A DNA stretch of 64,000 bases from Convolutriloba macropyga (lineage: Eukaryota). The notes beneath the pieces were generated by a model, which saw nothing but the letters and a program-made list of their open reading frames with translations, did no database searches and had not been told where the DNA came from. The position numbers were made by a program, and so were the translations under genes. The stretch spans positions 1,798,001 to 1,862,000 of the forward strand of contig NC_134469.1 in assembly GCF_964194025.1 (NCBI RefSeq), read 5' to 3'. Below, piece by piece: positions 6,736-34,911 of the stretch; position 1 is the stretch's first letter, and each line of letters opens with the position of its first letter.

Positions 6736-6930
6736 CTGAAATGGAGAAAAAAGTAAACGCTTAGTTGATGAAGAGATTTGATTGTCACCGAAAATAAGAC
6801 AAAACTTAAGACATTGAATCAACTCATTTTAACGATTGAAGGATTGATTTGTTAATAACACCTATATGTCGAGTATACCTGTAGAAGTACATCAATTATT
6901 TACTCTTATAATGTCTCATTTAGCCCATAG

Positions 6931-14262: not shown

Positions 14263-14682
14263 CTGAACAAAGAGTTGCAATTCAAATTAGATAAATAAGT
14301 TGAAACAATTTTTAAGATCTGCGTGATTCTTTAACTATGAAGAATTCTTTAACTTTACCTGACCAAAGTGGGGAGAATAGAAACATATATTTCATATCTG
14401 GAAAACAAAAAATGAGCTGTTGAAAATTGATTTATTAAACTGGTGATCTGTTGTTTTATAAACCTAGTCATGGTAACCAAGTTAATTCATTCCGCAAAAA
14501 GAAAAAAAATTAACTATAAAATAAGTTGAAAGATCTGCGTGACCTGCGTGATTCTTTAACTACTTAATGTAGCAAAACTAAGATCAAAACTATGTTCAGT
14601 ATTAAAGATTAAGTCAAATATCTTTTAAATGGGTGCTTAAGAAATCTCAGCTCTCTTGTCCACTTCAAATGGTTATCTTGCA

Positions 14683-15830
14683 TGATCCTAGAAGAATCTT
14701 GCAAGATCATCATTCGCCTTGCAAAAATCTTGCAAGATCCTAGAAGAATCTTGCAAGATCATCATTCGCCTTGCAAGAATCTTGCAAGATCCTAGAAGAA
14801 TCTTGCAAGATCATCATTCGCCTTGCAAGAATCTTGCAAGATCCTAGAAGAATCTTGCAAGATCATCATTCGCCTTGCAAGAATCTTGCAAGATCCTAGA
14901 AGAATCTTGCAAGATCATCATTCGCCTTGCAAGAATCTTGCAAGATCCTAGAAGAATCTTGCAAGATCATCATTCGCCTTGCAAGAATCTTGCAAGATCC
15001 TAGAAGAATCTTGCAAGATCATCATTCGCCTTGCAAGAATCTTGCAAGATCCTAGAAGAATCTTGCAAGATCATCATTCGCCTTGCAAGAATCTTGCAAG
15101 ATCCTAGAAGAATCTTGCAAGATCATCATTCGCCTTGCAAGAATCTTGCAAGATCCTAGAAGAATCTTGCAAGATCATCATTCGCCTTGCAAGAATCTTG
15201 CAAGATCCTTGAGGAATCTTGCAAGATCATCATTCGCCTTGCAAGAATCTTGCAAGATCCTTGAGGAATCTTGCAAGATCATCATTCGCCTTGCAAGAAT
15301 CTTGCAAGATCCTAGAAGAATCTTGCAAGATCATCATTCGCCTTGCAAGAATCTTGCAAGATCCTAGAAGAATCTTGCAAGATCATCATTCGCCTTGCAA
15401 GAATCTTGCAAGATCCTAGAAGAATCTTGCAAGATCATCATTCGCCTTGCAAGAATCTTGCAAGATCCTAGAAGAATCTTGCAAGATCATCATTCGCCTT
15501 GCAAGAATCTTGCAAGATCCTAGAAGAATCTTGCAAGATCATCATTCGCCTTGCAAGAATCTTGCAAGATCCTAGAAGAATCTTGCAAGATCATCATTCG
15601 CCTTGCAAGAATCTTGCAAGATCCTAGAAGAATCTTGCAAGATCATCATTCGCCTTGCAAGAATCTTGCAAGATCCTAGAAGAATCTTGCAAGATCATCA
15701 TTCGCCTTGCAAGAATCTTGCAAGATCCTTGAGGAATCTTGCAAGATCATCATTCGCCTTGCAAGAATCTTGCAAGATCCTTGAGGAATCTTGCAAGATC
15801 ATCATTCGCCTAGCGAGAATTTTGCAAGAT
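14683..15830. repeat. 52-bp satellite, about 22 copies, built on the palindrome TCTTGCAAGA
   Basis: Unit gatcctagaagaatcttgcaagatcatcattcgccttgcaagaatcttgcaa, nearly invariant; variant gatccttgagg in four units. Confidence 0.95.
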
Positions 15831-17364: not shown

Positions 17365-19037
17365 GCTATGATCTTTTTTATTTTGTTGTTGAGTACGACC
17401 GTCACGCAACGAACCCGTGTAATGAAACGAGTAAGGGAAAGAGTTAATTGAGTTACAAAAGAGTACGCATGATATCAGAGACAAAGTAAGAAAAGAACCC
17501 TAACGTTAAGATGGCCACAGTCGTAGCCGTAGTCCAAAACTAAAGCCAAATTTGCAACTGTTTTCAAATTTTGCCTGACAATTACTAATTTGTAATTATT
17601 TATCTCTTCACAAGGCCCAATTTACGAGTTTTTATAAGTTTCTTTTGAATAAATAAAGCTGTAAAAAAAAATATTTGCTGCGCACAATATTTAATTTCCT
17701 TTCCAAGTAATGAAAATAATAAGTCGTCGAAATGTAGTTGCTAAAACAACCAAGTATATATCGGTTCATTGCCTCGTCGAATTGAAGCTAAGAGTTATGC
17801 CCAGAATAAATAATTACTGAGTAGAGAATTAATGAACACAATCAAATATTCTCCTGTTATTCAAATTTAAGAATCATAAACAACTTACAACAGTTGGAAG
17901 AATCCCGAATCCACTATGTCAGAGTAATTTAAGCTAATCCGAAAGATCGATTAATCGCTCTTTTCAACACTTTTTTTCTTCTTCTAGGAAAGTTGAACTC
18001 ACGCGTCAACTTCGTCTCTCCAACTATAACGAACTTATTTAACGAACTACTGCTTTTCAGATTCGCCAATCTCTCTCTGGTAGTTTTTCTGGTGCCTAAG
18101 GGTACTCAACCTTATCATTTTTTTTATCAGCAAAACGTAACGTGTCGTTCCTTTTAGAACATTCTGACCTAACGTCTAAGTGTTATAGTTGGCGTGGAAG
18201 GTCAGTCACAAGATGCCGCTTATCTTATGTTGATGTTTGTTCGAGATGACCGGAGCTGCCTGTTTATCTCGGTTTGATATTTTCAGAATATGGCACAATC
18301 CATGTTTCATGCTGAGCAATATGTGTGCAATTTTTCGCACGCTTGCTTTTTCCTTCCTAAGTAACGAATACGCATCCAATTTAAACTATGATACCTTTGT
18401 TTCCCATTTAGGCTGGAGTAATGTTCCGTTCTAAATAAAACTTTAACCGTTTCCTTAGAGTCATCAATAAAAGGAAAATAAAACTTAGCTCTTTCTGTCC
18501 CTTATTCCATTGTAGAATAGTTTCAGTGCTAATACTTTGGATTGACAGGTAATTTATCTCAACTTTCCACTCTGAACGAGGCCTTGGTAAAATGTTTTGA
18601 CTCTAGAAAAAATGTCGCTTCTTTCAAAGGAGTATAAGAAATTGGCCTTTCATCTATTTTCTATGTTTTACTTTAAAGGCCAAAAGAACGGTTTCGAGTA
18701 CCGGAAAAAGCCCGTTGTTTTTTTCAATGTGTAAGGAATTGTCCTAGGAGTGATCAGTTAAAATTTCATGGTGATCGGACTTGAGGAAGTAGAGTTTTCA
18801 AGACTTGCGGGGAGGGGTGGTGAAAATGCGGACGCCTGTATTTGGGACAATTAGGGCCCTGAAGCAGTACCAAAGAGTGGCAAATCAATATTTCATGCTC
18901 TGATAACTCAGTCAATGTGCGCACGCCATTTCTTGTTTGCCAATGATCTTATGCAAATACTAGCAAATCACCAACTAGCAAATTCATTAAACCTTAATTC
19001 CTACTAGCTTTGATTTACCTACTAACTTAGAGCGCCG

Positions 19038-19931
19038 ATGGATTTCCAATTGTATCAGTCTATTCTCAATTTTCATCGTCGTGGGACAATTCCAAAAGAT
19101 GTAAGTATTAATCGACAGAAAAGGCACCGTTTTAAACAATTATGTAGTCGCTACAGCAAACCCAAACTAACTCTTTTTAATAAAAAGACCGGACTCAAAT
19201 TATTGCACTCAAGGAGTGCAAAATTTATTATCCAAAAATTAAATCGGGCCCACGAGCATATTAAAGCAGTTGGGCTCGAACGGCTTGTTAAACAATCTTA
19301 TGATGCCCAGGGAGCCCAGCCTATCGTTCGAGAAGTAGTACGTAACTGTGATTATTGCAATGAAAAAATTACTCATCGCCGTTTTACCGGTCCCTTAGTT
19401 CATGCTTCTCGCCTTACACTGGATAGAATTTGTTATGAATTAGACCTAGTTATTACCGAAAGGCCGTTACTAGAAAAAAATTGCTTCAAGAACGCCCCTT
19501 CGTTAGATCCTACTTCTTTTATCCCTAAAACCGTGGACACTATTGATCCCGATTACAATTGCGTGTGCGCTGCACTTAGCACAATTCTGACCGGAAACCC
19601 TAATCAAGGCGGAAAAATTGAAGAAGTAATTCGTTCTTTACGAAAAGAAGGCCCGGACCGCCACTTATTAAATCTGATGGGCGCTGCCCCTTTTATTAAT
19701 GGCGCAGATGATCTTAATTTCGTTACAACAACAGATTTGAGAATGCTATCCCGAACCTTTAGAACTAATATTTATATGTTTTATGAGACCGATGAGTTCG
19801 AGCAAGCCCACTGGGATTGCTACACTGGAAATAAGATGGGCCCAAATAGAGGAAGAATTTACTTAAAGGCCGGCATGAGCGGTGGAACAATGCTTTGTTT
19901 TATTGTTACTCGTGTTAAGCAAAAAAAATGA
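19038..19931 (+). CDS. Second copy of the HHCC-OTU ORF (3' LTR), probably inactivated
   Basis: Eight amino-acid differences from the 310-aa copy including H69N and H286L; a 1-nt shorter A run alters the C-terminus (297 aa). Confidence 0.65.
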   Translation: MDFQLYQSILNFHRRGTIPKDVSINRQKRHRFKQLCSRYSKPKLTLFNKKTGLKLLHSRSAKFIIQKLNRAHEHIKAVGLERLVKQSYDAQGAQPIVREVVRNCDYCNEKITHRRFTGPLVHASRLTLDRICYELDLVITERPLLEKNCFKNAPSLDPTSFIPKTVDTIDPDYNCVCAALSTILTGNPNQGGKIEEVIRSLRKEGPDRHLLNLMGAAPFINGADDLNFVTTTDLRMLSRTFRTNIYMFYETDEFEQAHWDCYTGNKMGPNRGRIYLKAGMSGGTMLCFIVTRVKQKK

Positions 19932-20020
19932 GAAGTAAGTTGTTCAATTTAGATGACATAATTTATTAACCCGGACTAGCACACACATGACAGATATTTA
20001 AGTTAAATTAAAGTTCGCTT

Positions 20021-20374
20021 TTACACTGCATATGGACGCTCGATTTGCACTTTCTTCTTTATTTCCAATAGCGCTTGTTGCTCGGCTTTTTCGTTGTCAG
20101 ACAAGTCGCTATCACATGCCCGTTGATGCTGTTGTTCGTGTTGCTGTTGTTGTTGATCGTTTGGTGGCTGTTGTTGCTCGCTTGATTGCTGGGATTGATC
20201 ATCTGATTTCGCTGCGAGGTTCTTCTTTCTATTGTTAGACTTGCCGCTTTTTGTTCGCCTCTTTGCCTTCGTTTTGGAGTTTCGAATATGCTCTGCCCGT
20301 GGCGTTTTGCCAGCCACTGGAGGTAGTTTTATCGGGGCCTTTCCATGTCGCGCTTGAACAATTTTGCCGTCCAT
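20021..20374 (-). CDS. 3' LTR copy of the 117-aa ORF
   Basis: Same translation as 33924-34277. Confidence 0.55.
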   Translation of the reverse strand: MDGKIVQARHGKAPIKLPPVAGKTPRAEHIRNSKTKAKRRTKSGKSNNRKKNLAAKSDDQSQQSSEQQQPPNDQQQQQHEQQHQRACDSDLSDNEKAEQQALLEIKKKVQIERPYAV

Positions 20375-20871
20375 ACTGCGAGTAAGTTATATTTTAACGC
20401 CTGGCGAACAAGGGTAATAAGGGGCAAGGCCAAAAATAGCAATTAGCTATGTTCAGTTTTTAATGACCAAAAAAAGGGCACCAAATTGATTTCCTTTGAT
20501 TGGAGTTTCAGCAGGCTAAGTTTTAAAGTGAATGACCCCGAGGTTTTCCAACTCGAATAAACTTGGTCTTATTTGCCTTGCTCTAAATTGCGCCACAATT
20601 TTGTATGCCTCTTATCAGGTGTTATTTGCCGTGCAAAACTCCACTTTTGGTATTGTTGGTCATTTGTGTGCTAATTCGGTCTTATCTTTGTTAGAACAAG
20701 GTATTTGAGTCCTAAGTGTTTGATTCATTAGCCCTAATGTTAAGGCGCATATTTGTATTTGAGACCTGTCAAAATTAGGGCCTATTTATTTTACCCGCAA
20801 AAGTTCGGTGTGAAAGATAAAGTAGCGACTAACAAAGGTGTCAATAAACTACGCAGAAACTAAATTCTACA

Positions 20872-20883
20872 CCCTTCCCTTCT
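20872..20883 (-). promoter_or_regulatory. Polypurine tract
   Basis: AGAAGGGAAGGG on the minus strand directly abutting the TG of the 3' LTR. Confidence 0.85.
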
Positions 20884-21184
20884 GCATCATTATTCCCCCG
20901 AACAATCTTTGAGAAAGTTGCTCTAAGTGTAGGTTAGTTTTCGCCAGGTTCTACAAAGTTTGTGGTGGTGTTGAACTTAATTAAATTCAAAATTTGTTCC
21001 TTTTAGGAAATTGAATAACCGTCCTGTCGGCCCTCAAGTGCTTGAAATATTTTTATTCTCCCCTTGCATCTATCTGCACCAGTCAATTAGAAGGGTATCT
21101 TATATAGTAATTTTTTTTGCGTTGACAGTTCTTTTTTTTCAATTTCTACATGGTTTTCATGTGTGTTTTAGTCCTCAAACAACT

Positions 21185-21499
21185 ATGGGTAGCTTGTCGA
21201 CAGCCATTGCTGGATTTGGGGAGTACCCTGTCCGATTCCAGAATGATAAGGCGGTTGGTTTCACGGTCGTCTATCTGGACCGGACAAGGGCCATGAACCC
21301 CAGTGTTTCCAGAATTGTCGTCTTCAAGCAAGGCGGCGAAAGCGTCGAAGTTAAGCCGGAATCTTCGGAGCACCGGGACTTTGTGCGGGAGCTGCAGAGG
21401 TGGGATGAGGAATTGGTGCTGATGAGGCCAATTCCACCCGTCTATTTTCAATGCACCCACGCTATCAGTGCCCTCAAAAGCCGGTGTACGATGCAATAG
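21185..21499 (+). CDS. Antisense accessory ORF, 104 aa from the first ATG, MGSLST N-terminus
   Basis: GC-richer island starting at ATG 21185 inside the listed ORF 21011-21499; Gly2/Thr6 fits the N-myristoylation consensus. Confidence 0.45.
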   Translation: MGSLSTAIAGFGEYPVRFQNDKAVGFTVVYLDRTRAMNPSVSRIVVFKQGGESVEVKPESSEHRDFVRELQRWDEELVLMRPIPPVYFQCTHAISALKSRCTMQ

Positions 21500-21782
21500 C
21501 CTTCGTGCCACCCACCATCATTGAAAGGCCGTGGCCTTTCTCGACGCCACAAGATCGGCCGAACTGGTGGGTGGTAGACGAAAACTGAGTTTGAGTTATC
21601 TAAACTTGTAATTCTATCCTTAAACCCCTTTTAAATCTATGCTGTTGCTACTTTAATTCAGACTCTACAAACTGTTTGTTTTCTCTAAGGATATAATTAT
21701 AAATATAGTTAGCTTTGTATAAAAATTATCAAGAAACGGCAGAGTTCAATCCTTTTAGCACGAAGTCCATATACTACTTTAT

Positions 21783-22091
21783 TTATTGGTTTTTTCCCCA
21801 CATCTTTGGCGTCCAAGTGATTATCTTCTTTTCCGTTTGCGTGGACACATCCTTCAAACAAGGAGAATAAAGTATTGATTGGAATGCGGGTAACGGTTCA
21901 TTCGTCAAAGGGTTGACCCACTTAGATAACATAGCCGACTTAAATTCTTTGCCCGCCGCACTATCCAGTAAAAGCAATAATTCGTTTTCGTCTTCAAGTT
22001 GTAAAATAACAAACCTATCCTCGCAAAATTGTACCCGCTGGTATACGACAACCCAATCCAGAACTTTCGACTCCCAAATTAGAAGAACCAT
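21783..22091 (-). CDS. Accessory ORF, 102 aa, possible divergent U-box with a TQT motif
   Basis: ATG ORF containing GKEFKSAMLSKWVNPLTNEPLP and KDVSTQTE. Confidence 0.45.
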   Translation of the reverse strand: MVLLIWESKVLDWVVVYQRVQFCEDRFVILQLEDENELLLLLDSAAGKEFKSAMLSKWVNPLTNEPLPAFQSILYSPCLKDVSTQTEKKIITWTPKMWGKNQ

Positions 22092-22270
22092 GATGAAAAT
22101 GTTGTTGTTTTTTTAGGGATTATAGCTTTGATAGGCGCTGATTTTGATCTCGGGTTTTGTGGCCAAATGTATTAGTTACATTCCAGATAACAAACTTAAA
22201 TAGAGATAAATTTTGACCGCTTAAGTTGGACCGATCGGTTATATTTAATTGTCGGTTAAATCGTCGCTGC

Positions 22271-22807
22271 TCACATCCTCCCATTCACCTTCACCTTCTC
22301 GATTGTCCCGACGTGCGTAGAAAGGAGGCATCTCAGGTCCACCTTCGTTGCTAACATCTTCTTCGTTTCGGAATCTGGCTCCGCTGCCGTGGAGTCAGAG
22401 AGAACCCTGTATATTTCCACCGACGTATTCGCGTCTTCACGTTCTACAGGTCGAATAATGATTTTTATTCGTTCATTTGGAGCTAGAGGTCGATGGAGGG
22501 AGTACTTTACTTGGAATGAGTTTTCTTCTACTGAGTAGTCTTGGTCAAGGGTACCTGAATTATCCTCCGGTTTTCTATCCTCCACTAAATCCATAGTCCC
22601 CGCCTCGATAAGTAGTCGTGGTTCTGTTGACCAAGGGTTCGAAAGAAAGCAGTGGAACTCATAATACTCTGGTTCCCCAACTTCCAGAAGAATTACGTTC
22701 CCATCTATAAGATCCACCAAATGACCGTTCCATGTATCTTTGACGTCTCTAATTTTAAAAAGACGGCCAAGAGTAAAGCAGTGCCATTCGAAGTGTGTGC
22801 CACTCAT
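22271..22807 (-). CDS. Accessory ORF downstream of env, 178 aa, unknown function
   Basis: ATG-initiated, coding-like composition between AT-rich spacers, same strand as gag-pol-env; no recognised motif. Confidence 0.6.
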   Translation of the reverse strand: MSGTHFEWHCFTLGRLFKIRDVKDTWNGHLVDLIDGNVILLEVGEPEYYEFHCFLSNPWSTEPRLLIEAGTMDLVEDRKPEDNSGTLDQDYSVEENSFQVKYSLHRPLAPNERIKIIIRPVEREDANTSVEIYRVLSDSTAAEPDSETKKMLATKVDLRCLLSTHVGTIEKVKVNGRM

Positions 22808-23227
22808 TATTAGTACCTAGCGTTGAAACTCACTGAGGGTAGAATGATTTATTTTCTGTGTCAACTAATTAACTCAAATTTTACGGGTTCTCTTATCTAT
22901 TTAACGTTCGTATGCTTATCGTTCCGAGTTGAACTGTTGGCCGACCTCAAGTTCGCTCAGCCAAAGGGCGCAAGTGAAATCTTAGTGGTATCGGGATTTG
23001 TCGAGTACAACATACAAGTATTTAACTGTACAAATGAGTTTATAAATGAAAGCACCGGAATACTACTCATGAATAAAATCAAAACTGATTTTCCTAGTTA
23101 CAGTTAAGGGGTGATAGAACCATTTAAAGCACTTGTCTTAACAGGGTGGGCGAAAAAAAAATAGATACAAGTGGATAACTAACAGTTTCCGTTGTCATCG
23201 GCTCACTCTTCCCTTCACTTCTACAGT

Positions 23228-25553
23228 TTATAAAATCTTGACGCACGCCAACTCCTCTCGGTAGTCCCTGCTCCTCTGCGTTTTGCCACTGGATCCGGGG
23301 GGATAAGGTGTCGAAATGAAAGAGTCATCAAAGTCTTCTCCCAATTGAGTTGACTCCATCCCGTCGCGTTCAGAGTATGGTGGCACTTGAATGCGATCAG
23401 TCATTTTGAAATTCATTGGCCCTTGTCCACTCAAACCCGCATCTCCTCTTAGTAGGCGCTCCCAACAATTGAATCTACTCCTTCTGGCTCTCGGACTCGT
23501 CTGAGTACCAGCCGTATTCCCTTCGATAAATGCTTTGTTCATTATAACTCGGCAGAGTCCTGTGTACATCATCCAGAGTGCAATCACTAAGATTGCAGCT
23601 AAGTCAAACCATACAAACCAGCTGACAGGTCCACTGTGGTAAGCCCGCCAGTGAAATAGTGCATGCTGATTGATAATTCCTTGTGCAAAAGGTTTCGCGA
23701 TGGTTTTCATTGCTTCTTCATCTACGGTTCCTTCGGGTAGATCAACCATGTTCAAACGTAAAGTCTCCAACATCTGACTGTGAGCTTCCTCGCGAAACAC
23801 ATCTGGGATTTTCATTCCAGCTAGTTGTGTCTCCATTTCGTGCAATTCACCGAACAAAGTCCGCAGTAAGGGGTGTTGTTGAATCCTTACAACGAATCCG
23901 GTCTCGTACTGGCAAGTTCTTGGGTCCGGATATAATACCAAACTACCACTGGGGTCCTCTATGCGTCCTTTGCAGGGTGGTCGAATTAGGCAACTTTTGC
24001 AGCCGCTGATCCATTCTCCATTATCGAAGGCTTGTAAACTGTAGTTGAGCAGTCTGTAGTCGCTGGATCGCGAGTAAACCAAGTAGGTTGAGTCGTCCAA
24101 GTACTCCGCGTAAGGTTCTTCCGGTAAGGCTACCACCTGCTGTGCACAAAGCTTTAGAACTCATGTTTGCAAGTCGAAAAACAGACTAGAAAGGCACGTA
24201 GATTCTCCACTTCGTGACATTGAAAAAGGTTTTAGACACAGTTTAAGACGATTACTGCCGCTACAATGTGAAATGAGTTTCTCCTCCGTAACTTCGGCAA
24301 AATTATCTTTTCTTTCGGATATCAATAAGTAACTTCTCGAGAAACTGTATCGTGTCGCTGTTGACCCGTCTTCAATTGGTTGAGGTACTGGGACTGCGCG
24401 ATAAACTTTATGAAATCCGTTAGTGTGGTGTACAGGCACGTTTATCAGGACGTTTACGGCTGTTTCTGTAAGTACTGTTGACTCTACTAGTTCAAAGCCG
24501 TAATACGTCATTAAATCAGAACGGGGTATAGCTTCCTGCATCCTGTCAAGTTTGAGTCCGTTAAGAACTTGTCGTAAAATTTTTGGAGGTACAAGTGTTG
24601 CTGGAATATAGCCCCGAGCTAAACTGCTCAACGCGTCATCTAAGATGTAACCAAAATTGTGAAGTCCGACTTTGAATGCCGCCAATTCTGCTCTCAAAGC
24701 AAGCATAGTTTGGGTGAAGTTCGTCATTCCTACATTGAACTGAGCAGCAACCACTGCTGAGCTCTGTCTGTTGTTGTAGCAGGCCCCCCAATGTGTTTCT
24801 CCAATGTCGGTTTTATTGATAAGCTCTCCCAAAACGTTCCTGATCTTATGGAAATTGTCATTAGAATGAATTATGACTGATCATCTTTAATTGCCCTTGA
24901 GTTTTGTTTAATGAGTGGCCCAGCAGGTGGATTCGTTCCCCTGATTCAAGAGTGATCGTTCGCACCGCTCCGTCCAGAAATTCTGTCTCTTCACCAAGTC
25001 TATCCAAGTCTGCACCGCCACACAATCCGAAGAAAGAGAAGTATTGACAAAAACCAGCTTTTAGGACTGGCGCCAGGACAATAGCAGCAGCTATCCCACC
25101 TAGCAACGGTTTGACGAATCGCTTTGACCTCGACAAGCCTCCTTCTGTTCCATTCAAGTATGTTGCAGCCCTTTCCCGCATTTCGGTAAGAACAATATCA
25201 ATTTCTAGCATTTCATATTCCAATCCCTTCAGTGCAAGATATGTCGTATTCATCAAAACTTCAGTGGTAAAAGTGTTTTTGCAAAACTGTCCATGATGCT
25301 TCCTCCATCGCATTGCAAATTCGTATTGGAATTCTTGGAAAGCAATGTCCAGAGATGTCAAGTTGAGGGCAAGTAGGACTGGCAGCGGCACTGATACCCA
25401 AGTTGATTCCAGCGCACTCGCAATGATGACAGGGGTTTCCGTTGTGAAGACTGCGCCAGCTGTATGGTTAGTAGTTAAACAGATAGCACATCTCAGCAGG
25501 GAAAATAGGAAGAGTAGCCTCAGTGTCAGGAATCTGTCCGTTGTTCCTGTCAT
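23228..25553 (-). pseudogene. env: env, class I fusion glycoprotein (baculovirus F / gypsy env-like), about 775 aa, disrupted
   Basis: Signal peptide, furin site RSKR followed by hydrophobic FVKPLLGGIAAAIVLAPVL, heptad region, Cys-rich segment, TM WFVWFDLAAILVIALWMMY. One frameshift near 24870 and one in-frame TGA at 24161-24163 account for the three listed ORFs. Confidence 0.85.
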
Positions 25554-25736
25554 GACCGCGTTGACTCTAAAAGTAACAAAACGTTAAATTAAGTCATTAA
25601 AATCCGACCAAAGCCTATATTTTTCCGTATACAGAGAACCGATTAGTTTAAGTCAATATTAATCAATAACTGAGATTCATAAAAAGCAAGGGAGAAGGAT
25701 CCGGGTAACAAGTTTAAGTAAACGAGGAAAAAGTGT

Positions 25737-28700
25737 TTATTCATCGATTCCCAGTCGTATGACCGGTGCTCGGATCCTTGCCGAGCGGCGTAGCTCAACG
25801 GGTTCCTCCACTGAATTTTGGTTAATCGGTCGTGTTGCTTGTTCAACCTCTGCGTCTGGTGATCTACTCTCCCCGACGCTGTGAGGTTCTAACTGCCTTT
25901 GAACCAGTTGTCTTTGGTATTCCGGATCATTTTCACGGCTATTAGTATCCGGGGCGGCCTGATCGCCCAATTGATCAGCTGACTGCTCGACTATAGGATT
26001 ATTGATTACTCCAACTTCCTGTCCCACAGCAGGCTGTGGGACTTGAATCCCATTTCTTGGCACCAATATCGGCGGCCAGGGAATTGGGTCTGGATCCAAT
26101 TGCTCCCATTCGTCAACTTCCAGTGGTTCCTCGTAAAAATTCGTTGAACGAAACGGTGTGGCTCTACGCTCGCTCGTTTCCGGTTCCTCTTCCACGAATG
26201 GTTTAAGAAGGTTGTAGTGGAGAATACGCCATTTATCACGCCTTTGGGGTTTACTAACTTTGTAATTAACTTCCGAAGTTCTCTCAAGAACAATGTACGG
26301 TCCCTCCCACGGAAGAAAGAATTTTTTTGATGTAGCTTTATGTTTTGAGAAAACCCAAACTTTGTCATCGACTTCGTATGGTTTTCCAAAAACTTTCTTA
26401 TGAAATTGATCTTTTTGTCGGTTTTGATTTACTCCCAAAAGTTCCCGTGCATGAGAATGGGCCTCCCTGAATTGCCTATCGAGCCAGTCAACAAACTCGT
26501 TCTGGGTCCGCTCTTGATCGTGGGGCTTCGGGTAGAACAGATCAATAGGATATTGGCACTCCTGTCCATAGACGAGACTAAACGGAGTGGCTCCTGTCGT
26601 CCTATGAATAGTCGTATTATAGAGAAAATTGACATAAGGCAGCATTGTGTCCCAATCTCGAGGGTTTTCAGCGCAATATTTCGAGAGAACATCGGCAATA
26701 ACACGGTTATGTCGTTCCACTTGACCATTTTCTTGAGGGTGATACGGAGATGTTCTTGTTTTGTCCATTTTAAGCAATTTACAGAGTTCTTTAATCAAGT
26801 CACTTCCAAAGTTTTTTCCTTGGTCAGTGTGAAGTACCTCGGGCACAACAAAATGAAGGACCCAGCATTCTACAATTTCTTTTGCCACATATTTTGCTTC
26901 GGTTACAACAAGTGGAACACTGATTGCATTTTTTGTGAACAAATCCGTCATAACAAGAATGTACTTCGCTCTTGACCGTGCGGCTAGTGTAACTGGTCCT
27001 AATATATCAGCAGCGACCGTGTGAAAGCGAATACCAACTTTGAAGGGACTTAATTCTGCGGTACGTTGCCTGCCTGCCGTGGTCCGAGCTGCACATGGAA
27101 GACACCAAGAATGTTTTTTCTCTATGTCACGCCTCATGAAGGGCCACCAGAACCTCTGCCTGATTCGCATCAGTGTTTTTTCTACTTTGAAATGACCTCC
27201 ACTCACTGGGGAAGCGTGAAGTTGATCCAAAATTTCTTTTCTAAAAGAAACAGGTACAATCAGCTGCAAATGGGGTTCGTTCTTCTCTGGTTGAAACCAC
27301 TTCCTGTACAAAACTCGATTCTTAAGAACAAGCTCTGACCACCTTGACCAGTAGGCTACTACTTCAGGTCCATGCTGAACTGCCTGTTCTTTTAGAATTA
27401 GGTTAGGGCCCAGAGGCGAGCAGCTACTTTCTGATCTTGTTGGTGCCCAGTACAAAATACGGCTGATTGCCTCATCTTCATGCTGCAACCGTTCTATATC
27501 TGAGTCTGTGCGAGTCCATGTTATAGCGACCCCCTCTTCATTTTTGTCATCTATGGTTTCTGTAATAGCGTCAACCATAGCACAACGTTCACGTACCCTT
27601 TTTAGGGCTTCCTCGATTTCTTGAGGTTCGGGACACTGCCCCCATACCTGTTCTTTTTCGCCCGGCTCCCATTCAGGCTCTTCTTCCATCATCCGAGACA
27701 ACCCATCCGCATTGGCATGTTTGTTGCCCGCGCGGTGAACAATTTCGTAATTGAACTCTTGCAAATGTTGGAGCATTCTGAACGTCATGCCGTCTGCATT
27801 TTGCCTGAATAGCCATTTTAAGCTGGCGTGATCTGTACGTATGACAAAACTGAGTCCCCATATATAATGTTTGAACCATTTCAAAGCCTGAACTACCGCC
27901 AGGGCTTCCCGCTTCGTTGTAGAGTACATAGTTTCGGTCTTACTCGGGCTCCTACTTGCAAATAATATAGGATGTTCCACGCCATCGATGAAATTTGAAA
28001 GTACAGCACCCAGACTGACGTTGCTTGTATCTGTGTCAATGATAAAGGGGCAGTCATACCGAGGAAACTGTAGGACAGGTGCTGTAGCTAGTTCGAGCCC
28101 CAGTCGATCGAATGCCATTTGACAACAGGGAGTCCACTCAAATCGAGCGTTTTTCTTTGTTAGTTCATGCAAGGGACGAGCAATTTGTGCAAAGTCTTTC
28201 ACAAAGCATCGATAGTAATTGCAGAATCCAACGAATGACCGTACTTGTTTAACAGTTTTTGGCTCTGGCCATTCTCTGACAGCAGAAACCTTTTGAGGGT
28301 CTGGTCGAGCTCCCTCTTTATCGATAACATGACTGAGGTATACAACTTGTTGCTGAAGAAGTCTGCATTTCTTGGGCTTAAGTTTCAAGTTTGCTGCTCG
28401 CAACAGTTTGAATATACCTTCAATGTGTTTGAAGTGTTCTTCCTCAGTCGAATCGTACGCCAAAGCATCATCAAGAAAGATTAGAACCCACTTCCAGAGG
28501 TGATCTTTGAAAAGATTGTTCATAAGCCTTTGAGAGGTCCCGGGGGAATTAGATAGACCAAAAGGCATTTTAATGTATTCATACAGCCCACCATCAGGTG
28601 TGACGAACGCTGTTTTCTGTCTATCCTCTGGTGCTACCGGTACCTGCCAGTAGCCACTTGCTAAATCAAGAGAAGAAAAAAATTTCGCTCCCCTCAAAGC

Positions 28701-29987
28701 ATCGAAGCTCTGATCTATTTTTGGTATAGGAAAGGCGTCTTTCACCGTAACATCGTTAAGGTCGCGGTAGTCCACGCAGAACCTCCAACTACCATCCTTT
28801 TTCTTTTGAAGCACAATAGGAGCACTATAGGGACTCGATGAAGGCTGAATGACTCCCTTCTCCAGCATGCTCTTCAGTTCTTCTTGGATAATAGGTATCT
28901 TGGCCGGCGAAATACGATGCGGAGGTTTTTTGATGGGTGGGGTATCACCTGTGTCAATTTGATGCTGAACAATGTCGGTGCATCCAAGTTCATTGTTTTT
29001 CAACGCAAATACATCCCGATATTCTCGCACTAGTGTTCTCAGCCGATCGAGAGCAACACCAGAAACGCCCGGTGCAGATAATTCCAAAATTTGATCAACT
29101 TCCTGGTCTAGAGTGGGATGATCTTGGGCTTTATAGACTGTGTGAGCAACCCAATTCAAAACCTCGTCATCAGTGTCTGTCCATTGCTCATCTTCGGTTT
29201 CACTTAGATAAATTCTTTCTGAATCTTTGACCTGTGTTTCTCTAGAGAGTTGTGCTGCCATGAGATAGTCAGTTTCTTTGGGACTAGCGCCAGCGACTGC
29301 CTGCAGCTGATGATCGCTGACAAACTTTTTATCCTGCATTGACGGGTCCATTTCAGTTTCGCGACAGTAACGGTAGCTGCCAACTGCAGTCAGAGAAACC
29401 ATGCGCATTACCACCGCCGAACTTTCTTTGCTGCCTGTCCACATTTCGTTTGATCTAAAGTCAATTGCAAAACCATGGCGTTTCATTTCCTTGAGGCCAA
29501 GTATCATCTGAGGCTTCAAGTTCTGCAACACTAGAACGTGTATTTCCTCGCATATAGAACCCAACTTTAACTCCAATACTGCGCGACCAAGAACATTTAT
29601 AGTCTTTCCGTCGGCTGACTCTAAGCGGCCTTTGTATGGCAAAATTCTCGCAAAGCGATCCAAGCTGAAGAGTTTTTCTGCTTGCATTAGATTTGTTGAT
29701 GCCCCCGTATCAATCAATATTTCCGTTATCGAGTCGTTCACTATTCCGTCAACCACGGCTGCTTCGGAACCCTCATCAAAATCCGACGAATCAAACTTTT
29801 TCTCATCTTCTATGGCGGTTGTATTTGTTGCTACGTGCTGTTGTTTGGCCTTTTCGTCGCAAAATTTAACTTTTCTTGCGTCAAAGTTTGCATTATCATT
29901 ATCTTTTAGTCTATTTGCTTTGAATTCGGCCGGGATAAAGCCTTCTTTACGAAAAATTGTGGCCCTCCCGGCCTCTAGTAGTTTAAA
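25737..29987 (-). CDS. pol: Pol polyprotein (PR, RT, RNase H, integrase), expressed by -1 frameshift from gag
   Basis: LIDTGAS protease; WRFCVDYR, LDLASGYWQ, MPFGL and FLDD RT; TDHASL and NADGLSR RNase H; HHCC plus D-D-E (ADILGP, TDQG, VERHN) and WEGPY integrase; C-terminal LRRSAR. The frame is open but several conserved residues are substituted. Confidence 0.95.
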   Translation of the reverse strand, partial: FKLLEAGRATIFRKEGFIPAEFKANRLKDNDNANFDARKVKFCDEKAKQQHVATNTTAIEDEKKFDSSDFDEGSEAAVVDGIVNDSITEILIDTGASTNLMQAEKLFSLDRFARILPYKGRLESADGKTINVLGRAVLELKLGSICEEIHVLVLQNLKPQMILGLKEMKRHGFAIDFRSNEMWTGSKESSAVVMRMVSLTAVGSYRYCRETEMDPSMQDKKFVSDHQLQAVAGASPKETDYLMAAQLSRETQVKDSERIYLSETEDEQWTDTDDEVLNWVAHTVYKAQDHPTLDQEVDQILELSAPGVSGVALDRLRTLVREYRDVFALKNNELGCTDIVQHQIDTGDTPPIKKPPHRISPAKIPIIQEELKSMLEKGVIQPSSSPYSAPIVLQKKKDGSWRFCVDYRDLNDVTVKDAFPIPKIDQSFDALRGAKFFSSLDLASGYWQVPVAPEDRQKTAFVTPDGGLYEYIKMPFGLSNSPGTSQRLMNNLFKDHLWKWVLIFLDDALAYDSTEEEHFKHIEGIFKLLRAANLKLKPKKCRLLQQQVVYLSHVIDKEGARPDPQKVSAVREWPEPKTVKQVRSFVGFCNYYRCFVKDFAQIARPLHELTKKNARFEWTPCCQMAFDRLGLELATAPVLQFPRYDCPFIIDTDTSNVSLGAVLSNFIDGVEHPILFASRSPSKTETMYSTTKREALAVVQALKWFKHYIWGLSFVIRTDHASLKWLFRQNADGMTFRMLQHLQEFNYEIVHRAGNKHANADGLSRMMEEEPEWEPGEKEQVWGQCPEPQEIEEALKRVRERCAMVDAITETIDDKNEEGVAITWTRTDSDIERLQHEDEAISRILYWAPTRSESSCSPLGPNLILKEQAVQHGPEVVAYWSRWSELVLKNRVLYRKWFQPEKNEPHLQLIVPVSFRKEILDQLHASPVSGGHFKVEKTLMRIRQRFWWPFMRRDIEKKHSWCLPCAARTTAGRQRTAELSPFKVGIRFHTVAADILGPVTLAARSRAKYILVMTDLFTKNAISVPLVVTEAKYVAKEIVECWVLHFVVPEVLHTDQGKNFGSDLIKELCKLLKMDKTRTSPYHPQENGQVERHNRVIADVLSKYCAENPRDWDTMLPYVNFLYNTTIHRTTGATPFSLVYGQECQYPIDLFYPKPHDQERTQNEFVDWLDRQFREAHSHARELLGVNQNRQKDQFHKKVFGKPYEVDDKVWVFSKHKATSKKFFLPWEGPYIVLERTSEVNYKVSKPQRRDKWRILHYNLLKPFVEEEPETSERRATPFRSTNFYEEPLEVDEWEQLDPDPIPWPPILVPRNGIQVPQPAVGQEVGVINNPIVEQSADQLGDQAAPDTNSRENDPEYQRQLVQRQLEPHSVGESRSPDAEVEQATRPINQNSVEEPVELRRSARIRAPVIRLGIDE
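29928..29987 (-). promoter_or_regulatory. -1 ribosomal frameshift signal
   Basis: Slippery T TTA AAC in the gag frame (29987-29981), 7-nt spacer, then GGCCGGGA (29973-29966) pairing with TCCCGGCC (29935-29928). pol is in the -1 frame. Confidence 0.85.
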
Positions 29988-31126
29988 GGACCGGTCTGTT
30001 GTTGGGTTTGGCGCTCTGGGCAATCCTTAACAAAATGACCTTCCTGACCACATTGGAAACACTGCCTTCCCGCAACTGCTAATCGTCTGTCGAGGCTGTT
30101 TTGTTGCGCTGGTACACCACTGTACTGCGCATTGTTCGGTTTTGGACTGATGAATTGTTGACCGTAACGGCTATCGGGCGGATAAGGATTGTATAGACGT
30201 TTCTCGTCGCTTTCCTGTTTTGGTTTTTTGTCACTATGTGGGACCTCATATTGCTTTGAAATTACTGACGTCACAAATTTGCTCATCATATTTGACATAT
30301 TCTTCATAAACTCGGCCTGACTGTTTACTAGTTGATCAATCTTAGCATTGACAGACCCCGAAAGATCCGTAGATTTCTCAGCAGTTGCGAACACTCTGGA
30401 TGCATTGCCTCTCTGCATCAATTCATTACTCTGAGTATTCCCCTGAATCTCAACGGGGTTTTCAACAACTGATCTTAAGGACGCTAACCTTCGTCGCTGT
30501 CTCATACGAGAATTACGTGCGACAGCATCAAGGCTCAGTGCCCTATTTATAGCAGCGGAGAAGTTTTGGGGATCTTCTCTAAGTAAAAGTTCTTGGATTT
30601 CAGCGTCGTAGAGCCCATCGATAAACTGTTCGCGGTTCATATCGTCACGGGTTGCAGCATTCATGTTATGGTTCGCAACCTCCCCGGTGGACCGTATTCT
30701 CCTTGAAAATTCCTGAATTTCCTCCTTTTCGCCTTGAATAAGGTTTTTGAATTCGGCTCGAGCAGTTCGTTGGTTTCGAAATGGCATCATTCGAGGGTCT
30801 AAGTATTCAAACAATCGCTCCAGAGTAGGTGCCGGGTGCCCATCTTCTTGTTCTCGAAAGTGGTTGGGCATTGCAGTGTATTCATCAAGGGCCCAGCCTG
30901 TGAGGCAGGTTGGGACACAAGCCATTGCTTGTTCTTCATCCCAACGATTCGACTCAACAATGCATAAAAAATGTTTTTTCCAATCTACCCAAGTTTTGTA
31001 TATCAGATTAGGAAAACGATCGGGTTGGCGTGCACCTCGCCCATACAATCCTTGACCATTCAGTGCGTCCGCAGCTTGAATGGCTGCTTCGGCAATTCGT
31101 TGAATATCTTCCGCTTGCAACGCCAT
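29975..31126 (-). CDS. gag: Gag, 383 aa, with one CCHC zinc knuckle
   Basis: Capsid-like W..W..HF...NRW...L.G.A segment, QG..E.I..F motif, CFQCGQEGHFVKDC knuckle. Confidence 0.92.
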   Translation of the reverse strand: MALQAEDIQRIAEAAIQAADALNGQGLYGRGARQPDRFPNLIYKTWVDWKKHFLCIVESNRWDEEQAMACVPTCLTGWALDEYTAMPNHFREQEDGHPAPTLERLFEYLDPRMMPFRNQRTARAEFKNLIQGEKEEIQEFSRRIRSTGEVANHNMNAATRDDMNREQFIDGLYDAEIQELLLREDPQNFSAAINRALSLDAVARNSRMRQRRRLASLRSVVENPVEIQGNTQSNELMQRGNASRVFATAEKSTDLSGSVNAKIDQLVNSQAEFMKNMSNMMSKFVTSVISKQYEVPHSDKKPKQESDEKRLYNPYPPDSRYGQQFISPKPNNAQYSGVPAQQNSLDRRLAVAGRQCFQCGQEGHFVKDCPERQTQQQTGPLNY

Positions 31127-31407
31127 TTTTGTTATGTAATTGCTTAGCCGCTTAAACTAGAGTGTTCTTCTAAATTTTGCGAATCCACTTCTTGTCTTAC
31201 TTCGCGATCTCGCCGGAGTCTGAGTAGTTCTCTCAATCTATCAGCCCGACTTCTGGTTTGAGTTAATTGATTTGTACTCGGGAATTCGGGTAGGTGTTCT
31301 TCGCTTCTTTGGGCGAGTATTGAATCCAATTTTGAGGAAGTATGTTGTACACCTCTTGAATTGAGACCCAACTTCGTAAAATCTAATCTATTTTAATCTG
31401 TCAGAAA

Positions 31408-31425
31408 GCCCACCCAGGAGCGCCA
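31408..31425 (-). promoter_or_regulatory. Primer-binding site, tRNA-Asn-like
   Basis: Minus strand TGGCGCTCCTGGGTGGGC; its complement GCCCACCCAGGAGCGCCA resembles the 3' end of metazoan tRNA-Asn(GTT) (...GCCCACCCAGGGACGCCA in human). Confidence 0.8.
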
Positions 31426-32939
31426 CTGTAGAATTTTGTATTTTTATCGTTAGAAGGCTGACCGGACTGGCAAGCGCCCAAAACTCTATCAAATTTGAAA
31501 GGTTCTTCGAAGAAAAGTGAGTCCTTCTGACAATTAGGTATAAAGTTTTGTCCCCTGTGCTCTCTCAAAGCTGTAAAAAAAAATATTTGCTGCGCACAAT
31601 ATTTAATTTCCTTTCCAAGTAATGAAAATAATAAGTCGTCGAAATGTAGTTACTAAAACAACCAAGTATATATCGGTTCATTGCCTCGTCGAATTGAAGC
31701 TAAGAGTTATGCCCAGAATAAATAATTACTGAGTAGAGAATTAATGAACACAATCAAATATTCTCCTGTTATTCAAATTTAAGAATCATAAACAACTTAC
31801 AACATTTGGAAGAATCCCGAATCCACTAAGTCAGAGTAATTTAAGCAAATCCGAAAGATCGATTAATCGCTCTTTTTAACACTTTTTTTCTTCTTCTAGG
31901 AAAGTTGAACTCACGCGTCAACTTCGTCTCTCCAACTATAACGAACTTATTTAACGAACTACTGCTTTTCAGATTCGCCAATCTCTCTCTGGTAGTTTTT
32001 CTGGTGCCTAAGGATACTCAACCTTATCAGTTTTTTTATCAGCAAAACGTAACGTGTCGTTCCTTTTAGAACATTCTGACCTAACGTCTAAGTGTTATAG
32101 TTGGCGTGGAAGGTCAGTCACAAGATGCCGCTTATCTTATGTTGATGTTTGTTCGAGATGACCGGAGCTGCCTGTTTATCTCGGTTTGATAATTTCAGAA
32201 TATGGCACAATCCATGTTTCATGCTGAGCAATATGTGTGCAATTTTTCGCACGCTTGCTTTTTCCTTCCTAAGTAACGAATATGCATCCAATTTAAACTA
32301 TGATACCTTTGTTTCCCATTTAGGCTGGAGTAATGTTCCGTTCTAAATAAAACTTTAACCATTTCCTTAGAGTCATCAAAAAAGGAAAATAAAACTTAGC
32401 TCTTTCTGTCCCTTATTCCATTGTAGAATAGTTTCAGTGCTAATACTTTGGATTGACAGGTAATTTATCTCAACTTTCCACTCTGAACTGGTAAAATGTT
32501 TTGACTCTAGAAAAAATGTCGCTTCTTTCAAAGGAGTATAAGAAATTGGCCTTTCATCTATTTTCTATGTTTTACTTTAAAGGCCAAAAGAACGGTTTCG
32601 GGTACCGGAAAAAGCCCGTTGTTTTTTTCAATGTGTAAGGAATTGTCCTAGGAGTGATCAGTTAAAATTTCATGGTGATCGGACTTGAGGAAGTAGGGTT
32701 TTCAAGACTTGCGGGGGGGTGGTGAAAATGCGGACGCCTGGATTTGGGACAATTAGGGCCCTGAAGCAGTACCAAAGAGTGGCAAATCAATATTTCATGC
32801 TCTGATAACTCAGTCAATGTGCGCACGCCATTTCTTGTTTGCCAATGATCTTATGCAAATACTAGCAAATCACCAACTAGCAAATTCATTAAACCTTAAT
32901 TCCTACTAGCTTTGATTTACCTACTAACTTAGAGCGCCG

Positions 32940-33872
32940 ATGGATTTCCAATTGTATCAGTCTATTCTCAATTTTCATCGTCGTGGGACAATTCCACAAG
33001 ATGTAAGTATTAATCGACAGAAAAGGCACCGTTTTAAACAATTATGTAGTCGCTACAGCAAACCCAAACTAACCCTTTTTAATAAAAAGACCGGACTCAA
33101 AGTATTGCACTCAAGGAGTGCAAAATTTTTTATCCAAAAATTACATCGGGCCCACGAGCATATTAAAGCAGTTGAGCTCGAACGGCTTGTTAAACAATCT
33201 TATGATGTCCAGGGAGCCCAGCCTATCGTTCGAGAAGTAGTACGTAACTGTGATTATTGCAATGAAAAAATTACTCATCGCCGTTTTACCGGTCCCTTAG
33301 TTCATGCTTCTCGCCTTACACTGGATAGAATTTGTTATGAATTAGACCTAGTTATTACCGAAAGGCCGTTACTAGAAAAAAATTGCTTCAAGAACGCCCC
33401 TTCGTTAGATCCTACTTCTTTTATCCCTAAAACCGTGGACACTATTGATCCCGATTACAATTGCGTGTGCGCTGCACTTAGCACAATTCTGACCGGAAAC
33501 CCTAATCAAGGCGGAAAAATTGAAGAAGTAATTCGTTCTTTACGAAAAGAAGGCCCGGACCGCCACTTATTAAATCTGATGGGCGCTGCCCCTTTTATTA
33601 ATGGCCCAGATGATCTTAATTTCGTTACAACAACAGATTTGAGAATGCTATCCCGAACCTTTAGAACTAATATTTATATGTTTTATGAGACCGATGAGTT
33701 CGAGCAAGCCCACTGGGATTGCTACACTGGAAATAAGATGGGCCCAAATAGAGGAAGAATTTACTTAAAGGCCGGCATGAGCGGTGGAACAATGCATTGT
33801 TTTATTGTTACTCGTGTTAAGCAAAAAAAAATGAGAAGTAAGTTGTTCAATTTAGATGACATAATTTATTAA
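32940..33872 (+). CDS. LTR-encoded antisense protein: integrase-type HHCC zinc finger + OTU-like cysteine protease (apparently intact copy)
   Basis: H69/H74...C104xxC107 preceded by a GIN1/Ginger-like N-terminal segment. IDPDYNCVCAALSTILTG resembles the OTU D-x-N-C box; TDL..LS..F..NIY, W..Y, IYL and H286 follow. Confidence 0.7.
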   Translation: MDFQLYQSILNFHRRGTIPQDVSINRQKRHRFKQLCSRYSKPKLTLFNKKTGLKVLHSRSAKFFIQKLHRAHEHIKAVELERLVKQSYDVQGAQPIVREVVRNCDYCNEKITHRRFTGPLVHASRLTLDRICYELDLVITERPLLEKNCFKNAPSLDPTSFIPKTVDTIDPDYNCVCAALSTILTGNPNQGGKIEEVIRSLRKEGPDRHLLNLMGAAPFINGPDDLNFVTTTDLRMLSRTFRTNIYMFYETDEFEQAHWDCYTGNKMGPNRGRIYLKAGMSGGTMHCFIVTRVKQKKMRSKLFNLDDIIY

Positions 33873-33923
33873 CCCGGACTAGCACACACATGACAGATAT
33901 CTAAGTTAAATTAAAGTTCGCTT

Positions 33924-34277
33924 TTACACTGCATATGGACGCTCGATTTGCACTTTCTTCTTTATTTCCAATAGCGCTTGTTGCTCGGCTTTTTCGTTGT
34001 CAGACAAGTCGCTATCACATGCCCGTTGATGCTGTTGTTCGTGTTGCTGTTGTTGTTGATCGTTTGGTGGCTGTTGTTGCTCGCTTGATTGCTGGGATTG
34101 ATCATCTGATTTCGCTGCGAGGTTCTTCTTTCTATTGTTAGACTTGCCGCTTTTTGTTCGCCTCTTTGCCTTCGTTTTGGAGTTTCGAATATGCTCTGCC
34201 CGTGGCGTTTTGCCAGCCACTGGAGGTAGTTTTATCGGGGCCTTTCCATGTCGCGCTTGAACAATTTTGCCGTCCAT
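33924..34277 (-). CDS. LTR-encoded 117-aa basic / poly-Q / acidic protein, function unknown
   Basis: ATG ORF with K/R cluster (KTKAKRRTKSGKSNNRKK), Q-rich tract and acidic helix; identical translation in both LTRs; AATAAA about 55 nt downstream on the minus strand. Confidence 0.55.
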   Translation of the reverse strand: MDGKIVQARHGKAPIKLPPVAGKTPRAEHIRNSKTKAKRRTKSGKSNNRKKNLAAKSDDQSQQSSEQQQPPNDQQQQQHEQQHQRACDSDLSDNEKAEQQALLEIKKKVQIERPYAV

Positions 34278-34911
34278 ACTGCGAGTAAGTTATATTTTAA
34301 CGCCTGGCGAACAAGGGTAATAAGGGGCAAGGCCAAAAATAGCAATTAGCTATGTTCAGTTTTTAATGACCAAAAAAAGGGCACCAAATTGATTTCCTTT
34401 GATTGGAGTTTCAGCAGGCTAAGTTTTAAAGTGAATGACCCCGAGGTTTTCCAACTCGAATAAACTTGGTCTTATTTGCCTTGCTCTAAATTGCGCCACA
34501 ATTTTGTATGCCTCTTATCAGGTGTTATTTGCCGTGCAAAACTCCACTTTTGGTATTGTTGGTCATTTGTGTGCTAATTTGGTCTTATCTTTGTTAGAAC
34601 AAGGTATTTGAGTCCTAAGTGTTTGTTTCATTAGCCCTAATGTTAAGACGCATATTTGTATTTGAGACCTGTCAAAATTAGGGCCTATTTATTTTACCCG
34701 CAAAAGTTCGGTGTGAAAGATAAAGTTGCGACTAACAAAGGTGTCAATAAACTACGCAGAAACTAAATTCTACAATAATGTTAACTTTGCAAAAAGATTG
34801 TGACCAAGCGGTAGAGTTCGTTCCAGTCGAGTTCTGCTTAATTTAGCAATGTGAGTTATTTTCCTGACCATTTCTCGGTGATTGTTCAATTCAATTCAAA
34901 AATGCGAACAG

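Follow-up and report, generated by a model that had tools for sequence, protein, structure and literature searches.

Can a Ty3/gypsy retrotransposon of an invertebrate carry accessory genes in the manner of the complex retroviruses, with their nef (human immunodeficiency virus, HIV), sag (mouse mammary tumour virus, MMTV), bel (foamy virus) and pX/HBZ (human T-cell leukaemia virus, HTLV)? We studied this question on a stretch of 64,000 nucleotides from Convolutriloba macropyga (assembly GCF_964194025.1, contig NC_134469.1, positions 1,798,001 to 1,862,000), the whole of which is called the window below. It holds a 17-kb Ty3/gypsy retrotransposon with gag, pol and env, encoded on the minus strand. 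A preliminary description of this DNA had placed a gypsy element with env and accessory open reading frames (ORFs) on both strands at 17655..34774, and this was borne out. The sense ORFs of 178 and 102 amino acids (aa) and the antisense ORF of 104 aa that it had proposed between env and the polypurine tract (PPT) were present at their places, and its convergent ORF pair within the long terminal repeat (LTR) was present in both LTRs, with 297 or 310 aa on the plus strand and 117 aa on the minus strand. Sequence comparison among copies of the element indicates that these five ORFs are very probably real, functional accessory genes. The LTRs and accessory ORFs of the window copy are as follows.

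17655..20871, minus strand: 3′ LTR, with about 140 bp missing at its outer end, as seen against other copies
31427..34774, minus strand: 5′ LTR, 3348 bp, with TG...CA termini, from comparison with other copies
22271..22807, minus strand: sense accessory ORF, 178 aa here and frameshifted near codon 148; 185 aa in other copies
21783..22091, minus strand: sense accessory ORF, 102 aa, of no known family; the weakest strand assignment among the five
21185..21499, plus strand: antisense accessory ORF, 104 aa here and frameshifted; 134-136 aa elsewhere; of no known family
19038..19931, plus strand: antisense LTR gene, 3′ LTR copy, 297 aa, with Leu at the conserved His position
32940..33872, plus strand: antisense LTR gene, 5′ LTR copy, 310 aa, with the Cys175 codon at 33462 and the His286 codon at 33795
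20021..20374, minus strand: sense LTR gene, 3′ LTR copy, 117 aa, basic (net +10) and Gln-rich
33924..34277, minus strand: sense LTR gene, 5′ LTR copy, 117 aa

The 2.4-kb accessory segment has at least 87 matches in the genome at 65-100% identity, and we examined the 20 best loci together with 16 older or more distant ones. The ratio of nonsynonymous to synonymous substitution (dN/dS) was determined for 20 copies (the window copy and 19 others, with one tandem duplicate excluded), and variants were divided into shared ones, which arose during replication of the element, and private ones, which arose after insertion. Shared variants gave a dN/dS of 0.20 for the antisense LTR gene, 0.24 for the sense LTR gene, 0.24 for the 136-aa ORF, 0.22 for the 102-aa ORF and 0.20 for the 185-aa ORF, next to 0.15 for env, and the p values of the five annotated accessory frames ranged from 5e-4 to 3e-16. 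Private variants were near neutral (0.51-0.87). All five ORFs thus recur across copies and are under purifying selection, which was the check that the preliminary description had called for. As controls, two other long ORFs of the element gave 0.86 and 0.58, neither being significant, and shifted frames gave 0.77-5.7, except for the opposite-strand frame with common third positions. That frame looked constrained too, as is to be expected, but it carried majority stops in 14, 2, 3, 1 and 4 columns, against 0 in the annotated frames. Among 12 full elements, dN/dS was 0.10-0.30 for the five accessory ORFs, as compared with 0.05 for gag, 0.17 for pol and 0.10 for env, and in a noisier six-frame scan of 34 loci the stop-free low values fell in the same five frames.

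Moreover, an excess of substitutions at third positions was found in all five accessory ORFs. Substitutions were more conservative in the annotated frame for four of the genes, but not for the 102-aa ORF. For this ORF the annotated frame scored better in the two most diverged of the loci carrying it, and its protein was 100% identical between copies that are about 94% identical in DNA. Full-length accessory ORFs were open in 11-14 of 21 loci, where the figure for the 117-aa ORF is a minimum, since the start pattern missed older subfamilies; its start and N-terminal motif are retained there. The copies with broken accessory ORFs are the older ones. In the window copy, env and two accessory ORFs (178-aa and 104-aa) are broken. 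Splice acceptors before the accessory starts were also considered, and the pattern fitted two of seven window starts (env and the antisense LTR gene) against 10% of background ATGs; a candidate acceptor before the 117-aa ORF was not conserved, and no splice site is claimed from either.

The preliminary description had also allowed that the segment at 21-23 kb might be an unrelated nested insertion, and this turned out not to be the case. The order and strand of the three internal ORFs were kept in 31 of 36 loci, one of them at 29-37% amino acid identity, and the other five loci were rearranged or partial. The identity of the segment tracked that of env (r=0.98, over the 26 of 33 loci having both segments), and no inverted terminal words of at least 10 nt were found at the ends of the segment. 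A nested Ginger1 transposon was not supported, given the lack of such words and of a DDE domain in the LTR gene.

We then turn to the antisense LTR protein, for which Pfam gave Integrase_H2C2 alone, below the cut-off. In an AlphaFold model built on a 21-row alignment, the N-terminal domain (residues 1-100) reached a predicted local distance difference test (pLDDT) score of about 90. Residues 2-108 matched foamy-virus integrase (Z 8.7, root-mean-square deviation (rmsd) 2.5, 85 residues aligned), and also the N-terminal domain of murine leukaemia virus (MLV) integrase and Ty3, so that this part corresponds to the N-terminal extension and zinc domain of the foamy, MLV and Ty3 integrases. Residues 118-294 matched OTUD3 (Z 8.3, rmsd 4.4, 130 aligned), OTUD1 (Z 8.1) and Otu2 (Z 8.0), the rmsd of the OTU-fold matches being 3.8-4.4 across 130-138 residues. 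OTU proteins (OTUD3, OTUD1, Otu2 and viral OTUs) filled 17 of the 20 top structural rows, with nairovirus OTU domains among the closest, and Foldseek gave the same picture (best E 2.6e-3). Cys175 was present in 24 of 25 aligned relatives and His286 in 16 of the 21 covering the column; among genomic matches, the Cys was kept in 74 of 81 and the His in 71 of 76. This conservation of the catalytic pair holds at 20-40% identity among relatives, one of which (of 25) had a Pfam OTU match (E 1e-4). Altogether, the antisense LTR protein is predicted to join an integrase N-terminal domain to an OTU protease. The OTU-like gene proposed in the preliminary description is therefore supported by fold matches and by the conserved Cys and His, with enzyme activity as a prediction.

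A profile search of 1.84 billion proteins returned 143 matches. Many of the 20 that were inspected share the two-domain layout at 18-34% identity, and one has a canonical OTU loop. A profile of the N-terminal domain picked up YPYY-type proteins, three of them from fish genomes, and recovered 11 of the 11 other YPYY-type proteins offered, while it did not match the pol or integrase of the element itself; this argues against a plain copy of the element's own integrase tip. No DDE core was identified in the gene by Pfam or fold comparison. Ginger1 transposases combine YPYY, HHCC, DDE and OTU (PMC2836005), and we infer that the LTR gene was captured from a Ginger1-like gene with loss of the DDE part. 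PDB sequence searches gave nothing below E 0.4 (the single row from one profile was a viral L-protein N-terminus at E 0.6), and a protein atlas search gave no usable match for this protein. As a side observation, a remote two-domain homologue of the LTR gene and an env homologue were both listed with a longest contig of 87,950 bases, a hint of a further family with both genes.

The second half of the ubiquitin-manipulating pair suggested in the preliminary description, a U-box-like 102-aa protein, did not hold up in Pfam, pairwise and profile tests. Pfam gave no U-box match at E<=1, comparison of the 102-aa protein with four host U-box domains gave shuffle p>=0.20, and the U-box profile probability was at most 0.4% for each of the six sets of small ORFs, where leave-one-out controls reached 95.5-97.7%. 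The 185-aa protein has a beta-rich N-terminal domain and an acidic tail. Its fold prediction reached a pLDDT of 39 with an uninformative Foldseek search, and in the atlas it met only phage clusters, at 0.85 or less. A paralogy of the 102-aa and 185-aa proteins, seen by eye, gave 0.1-0.9% in hhalign and rank 26 of 2001 against shuffles, and is not claimed.

To place these genes, related families in the same genome were compared. At least 151 env matches were found (150 of 1350 candidates scored), and 13 further elements were sampled. In a sister family with a reverse transcriptase (RT) 71% identical to that of the window element, the LTRs are 3.3-3.8 kb long and an antisense LTR gene occurs at the same place and on the same strand, at 31% identity. 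In all eight loci examined, a phase-2 GT-AG intron of 60-75 nt interrupts this sister gene (the donor motif occurs in 30 of 31 loci), and it lies between exons with saturated synonymous sites. An intron on the antisense strand survives reverse transcription, which implies that the opposite strand of the sister family is transcribed and spliced. In the sister family a single, nearly uniform internal body (env 95-97% identical) is combined with four types of LTR, three of which differ so much that alignment is confined to about 400 bases of the gene region, at 66-70%; one body with four very different LTR types suggests that LTR cassettes have been swapped, as in an arms race. The internal ORFs of the window element showed no homology to those of the sister family in pairwise and profile comparisons. 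Two ORFs of its own occur in the sister family, a sense one of 148 aa ahead of the PPT and an antisense one of 82-115 aa.

Two further families differ in what they carry. In family E (two loci; RT 79%) the LTR carries the OTU gene at the corresponding place, with no intron, and there are no internal accessory ORFs. Family D (four loci; RT 70%) has 1.1-kb LTRs that are 99.7% identical, an env, and a 149-aa ORF homologous to the N-terminal domain of the 185-aa protein (hhalign 88%, E 3e-6). Family D keeps this homologue without an OTU gene, which makes the accessory set a modular one. None of these genes was seen in seven loci with remote env sequences (26-33%), the LTR being confirmed within the stretch for one of the seven. 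An RT tree covered the families of this genome and five metagenome loci; the six distant metagenome loci have RT identities of 34-47%. The branching order of the four families was unsettled (support 92/97 and 86/97), so gain and loss of the OTU gene cannot be ordered. A search for related viral contigs found none.

The sister family also sheds light on the convergent sense LTR gene, of which the window 117-aa gene is the positional counterpart. In the sister family this gene begins MARTK(Q/N)T in 20 of 31 loci, over three LTR types. Host histone H3 begins MARTKQT, and the start of the sister protein is identical to it at 5-6 of 6 residues. The motif persists between LTR types whose synonymous sites are saturated, and from composition the chance of meeting ARTK there is about 5e-5 per protein. 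As to the host gene itself, the H3 of the histone cluster carries a Ser at position 31 and is unusual in its region 85-90.

Based on these results, we somewhat favour a reading in which the element has five selected accessory genes and its predicted integrase-tip/OTU protein removes ubiquitin at the integration complex or at its own chromatin, countering silencing or degradation; the deubiquitinase mechanism as such we hold to be evenly balanced. In retroviral intasomes the N-terminal domain docks on the core of another subunit and its extension touches DNA, and for this reason the N-terminal domain of the LTR protein is read as an address: the YPYY and HHCC domain of Ginger1 type would bring the protease to integrase or DNA. 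Gag-pol would be made from genomic RNA by -1 frameshifting, env and the sense accessory genes from RNAs that are spliced or start internally, and the antisense genes from a separate opposite-strand transcript that any LTR, including solo LTRs, could make. The convergent basic LTR protein may be a chromatin-directed helper and, in the sister family, a decoy of the H3 tail. The three internal genes may be lineage-specific host-interaction factors that are gained and lost. A bolder version, which we put forward tentatively and regard as rather unlikely, is that the LTRs are exchangeable anti-chromatin cassettes in an independently complex metavirid clade: full elements and solo LTRs would express an antisense, sometimes spliced deubiquitinase and an H3-tail decoy that remove or absorb silencing marks at their own copies.

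Several observations weigh against this reading. The window LTR antisense protein has no Pfam OTU match, and confidence in the modelled OTU half is low (pLDDT mostly 30-70). A Z near 8 is close to the background stated for the structure-comparison tool, so the fold call rests on a single family filling the match list together with the conserved Cys175 and His286, not on Z alone. Just ahead of the Cys and just behind the His the sequence departs from the OTU norm (this family lacks the canonical D-G-x-C loop and the polar third residue after the His), and family D shows that the OTU gene is not essential in every family. The three internal proteins could be assigned no fold or family, and expression of the accessory genes is a prediction from DNA. 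For the H3 likeness, the MARTK ORF has been deleted from one sister LTR type that was active recently (one copy shown), so this gene too is dispensable in some elements, and whole-tail H3 alignments were significant for one of four proteins only. The 117-aa protein of the window does not significantly resemble the MARTK proteins (p 0.2-0.6); it has none of the six anchored H3 residues, and a marginal H3-like internal hexamer (p 0.05).

The absence of a DDE core and the unusual residues beside the catalytic pair would also suit a self-limiting regulator that restrains copy number: the integrase tip, standing alone, would poison the element's integrase, compete with it or bind the LTR, and the OTU part would act as a scaffold or in self-processing instead of taking off ubiquitin. 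Each LTR holds the gene, and LTRs are covered about five times as deeply as the internal region in DNA runs, so the dose of the gene would rise with copy number. The four runs compared behave as DNA, with flat depth and no intron-like joints in the part displayed. However, the Cys and His are kept across distant relatives, and the N-terminal profile misses the element's own integrase while finding the other YPYY-type proteins, and we regard such a regulator as unlikely. Still less probable, in our view, is that the OTU part, like viral OTU proteases, acts on a host immune or stress pathway that depends on ubiquitin and thereby aids env-mediated spread from cell to cell, with the integrase tip as a leftover of a Ginger-like capture or as a means of nuclear localisation only. 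The closeness of nairovirus OTU domains, and a gene that accompanies an env under strong selection, speak for it; however, the first exon keeps its HHCC-type residues and a high-confidence fold across three families, and family D has env without the OTU gene. Finally, it is very improbable, and largely refuted, that the ORFs merely ride along as captured gene fragments or as a nested transposon and seem conserved from the youth of the family or RNA-level constraint. In favour of this, they are broken in 7-10 of 21 loci, a comparable antisense ORF of family D (94 aa) was rejected as a selected gene with a dN/dS above 1, and the strand of the 102-aa ORF is not cleanly settled by its substitution pattern, but the age of the broken copies, the contrast of shared with near-neutral private variants, the third-position excess, the lack of terminal inverted words, the protein conservation despite saturated synonymous sites between LTR types and the maintained intron all argue otherwise.

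For the favoured reading of five selected genes with a predicted deubiquitinase, we compared the element with known systems. Like complex retroviruses, it has an accessory cluster between env and the 3′ LTR, genes in the LTR, and antisense and spliced genes; its selected accessory genes between env and the LTR and inside the LTR make a functional likeness, not membership in Retroviridae. Unlike them, it has a Ty3/gypsy-like pol set and an F-like env, and no homology among accessory proteins was found. The two likely follow the same genome logic from independent origins. Env-carrying gypsy elements with an F-type env, the 'ancient errantiviruses', are widespread in animals (Chary and Hayashi, PMC13524379). 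They resemble the window element in gag-pol-env order, an F-like env with furin site and fusion peptide, a tRNA primer site and young animal copies. That survey annotates only gag, pol and env, the words accessory, antisense and OTU being absent from its main text, and the window primer-site 12-mer is absent from its element table (PMC13524379). Gene-carrying LTRs of 3.3-3.8 kb set the window-type elements apart.

Ginger1 and OTU-bearing Helitrons likewise join, in one mobile-element protein, a YPYY and HHCC integrase N-terminus with OTU, and have introns; as described in the available text, Ginger1 carries OTU on a full DDE transposase within an inverted-repeat DNA transposon, whereas here the gene is DDE-less and antisense in an LTR (PMC2836005). 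The planarian gypsy element Burro/GYPSM1 is also from an invertebrate and has env and extra domains of the ubiquitin and apoptosis pathways, but these lie mostly in one 4,900-aa polyprotein upstream of pol, and the available text reports no OTU, LTR-resident or antisense genes (PMC6431247). Additional ORFs between pol and the 3′ LTR, some of them antisense, are known from plant Retand (antisense TRP28; PMC11963269), rotifers (ORF3 types; PMC5408684) and Drosophila (sORF2; PMC13486581); they are different proteins in elements with fewer genes, and in the accessible parts of these three papers they are not combined with env and two LTR-resident genes. A brief copy of the H3 N-terminus in a parasite protein is also found as ARSK in influenza H3N2 NS1; the sister-family ARTK(Q/N)T differs in lying at the true N-terminus, as in H3, and in being LTR-encoded, and the window protein lacks it (PMC6028506). 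In the open-access literature, so far as its text was accessible, neither an OTU gene nor an H3-like protein encoded in the LTR of a metavirid came to light, nor did a cluster of five genes next to env.

These comparisons suggest that the accessory design that marks complex vertebrate retroviruses arises apart from Retroviridae, in a metavirid with five selected genes, some LTR-resident and some antisense, among env-bearing gypsy elements otherwise described as three-gene genomes. They also offer two assayable counter-defence candidates for an animal LTR retrotransposon, an OTU protease and an H3-tail mimic, which open to experiment how such elements oppose silencing by chromatin and why ubiquitin proteases are so frequent in DNA transposons.

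The remaining parts of the element agree with its class, since direct LTRs with TG...CA, a primer site, a PPT and short target duplications are hallmarks of Ty3/gypsy, and by profile searches the Pfam domain set is gypsy-like and env F-like. These parts are as follows.

29975..31126, minus strand: gag, 383 aa, with one CCHC knuckle
25737..30026, minus strand: pol, 1429 open codons, in the order protease-RT-RNase H-integrase
29981..29987, minus strand: slippery heptamer TTTAAAC with a downstream stem-loop, in the gag-pol overlap
23228..25553, minus strand: env, F-type-like, in three pieces in the window copy
31408..31426 (about), minus strand: primer-binding site, matching host tRNA-Asn(GTT)
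20872..20890, minus strand: polypurine tract, adjoining the 3′ LTR

The two LTRs are 98.8% identical over 3218 aligned columns. The target-site duplication is unreadable at the window copy because the 3′ LTR lacks its outer ~140 bp, and 5-bp duplications are readable at several other copies. The primer site has 16 exact matches in the genome, and the two examined were both tRNA-Asn. The Pfam match of the pol protease was weak (E 0.24), and a chromodomain was not matched in the Pfam search of pol. The heptamer also occurs in three other families, and with its stem it is likely a -1 gag-pol frameshift site. Env, intact at 774-776 aa in other copies and open in 7 of 21 loci, has a signal peptide, a furin site at 25130 followed by a hydrophobic peptide, and one transmembrane segment; its Pfam Baculo_F matches (E 0.0056 and 0.0002) were both below the acceptance cut-off.

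Some minor observations were made on the element and its surroundings. About 190 bp between the PPT and the antisense 136-aa ORF (window 21159-21171) are missing in the window copy and four others, and present in most. At C2 17.26-17.31 Mb, at least four units of the window family form a tandem array with ~11.9-kb spacing and LTRs shared between units; an internal deletion there joins pol in frame to env (1513 open codons), and the five accessory ORFs are open in both of the two units examined. Elsewhere in the window, a 52-bp tandem array of 22 copies with 99% identity and internal palindromes lies at 14675-15830, with related words again at 36.1-37.6 kb. A unit of ~1485 bp is repeated four times in tandem at 49800-55250 with 98% identity, and at 6900-10200 a 1.68-kb unit is duplicated, with 22-bp repeats that are strongly G-rich and strand-skewed.

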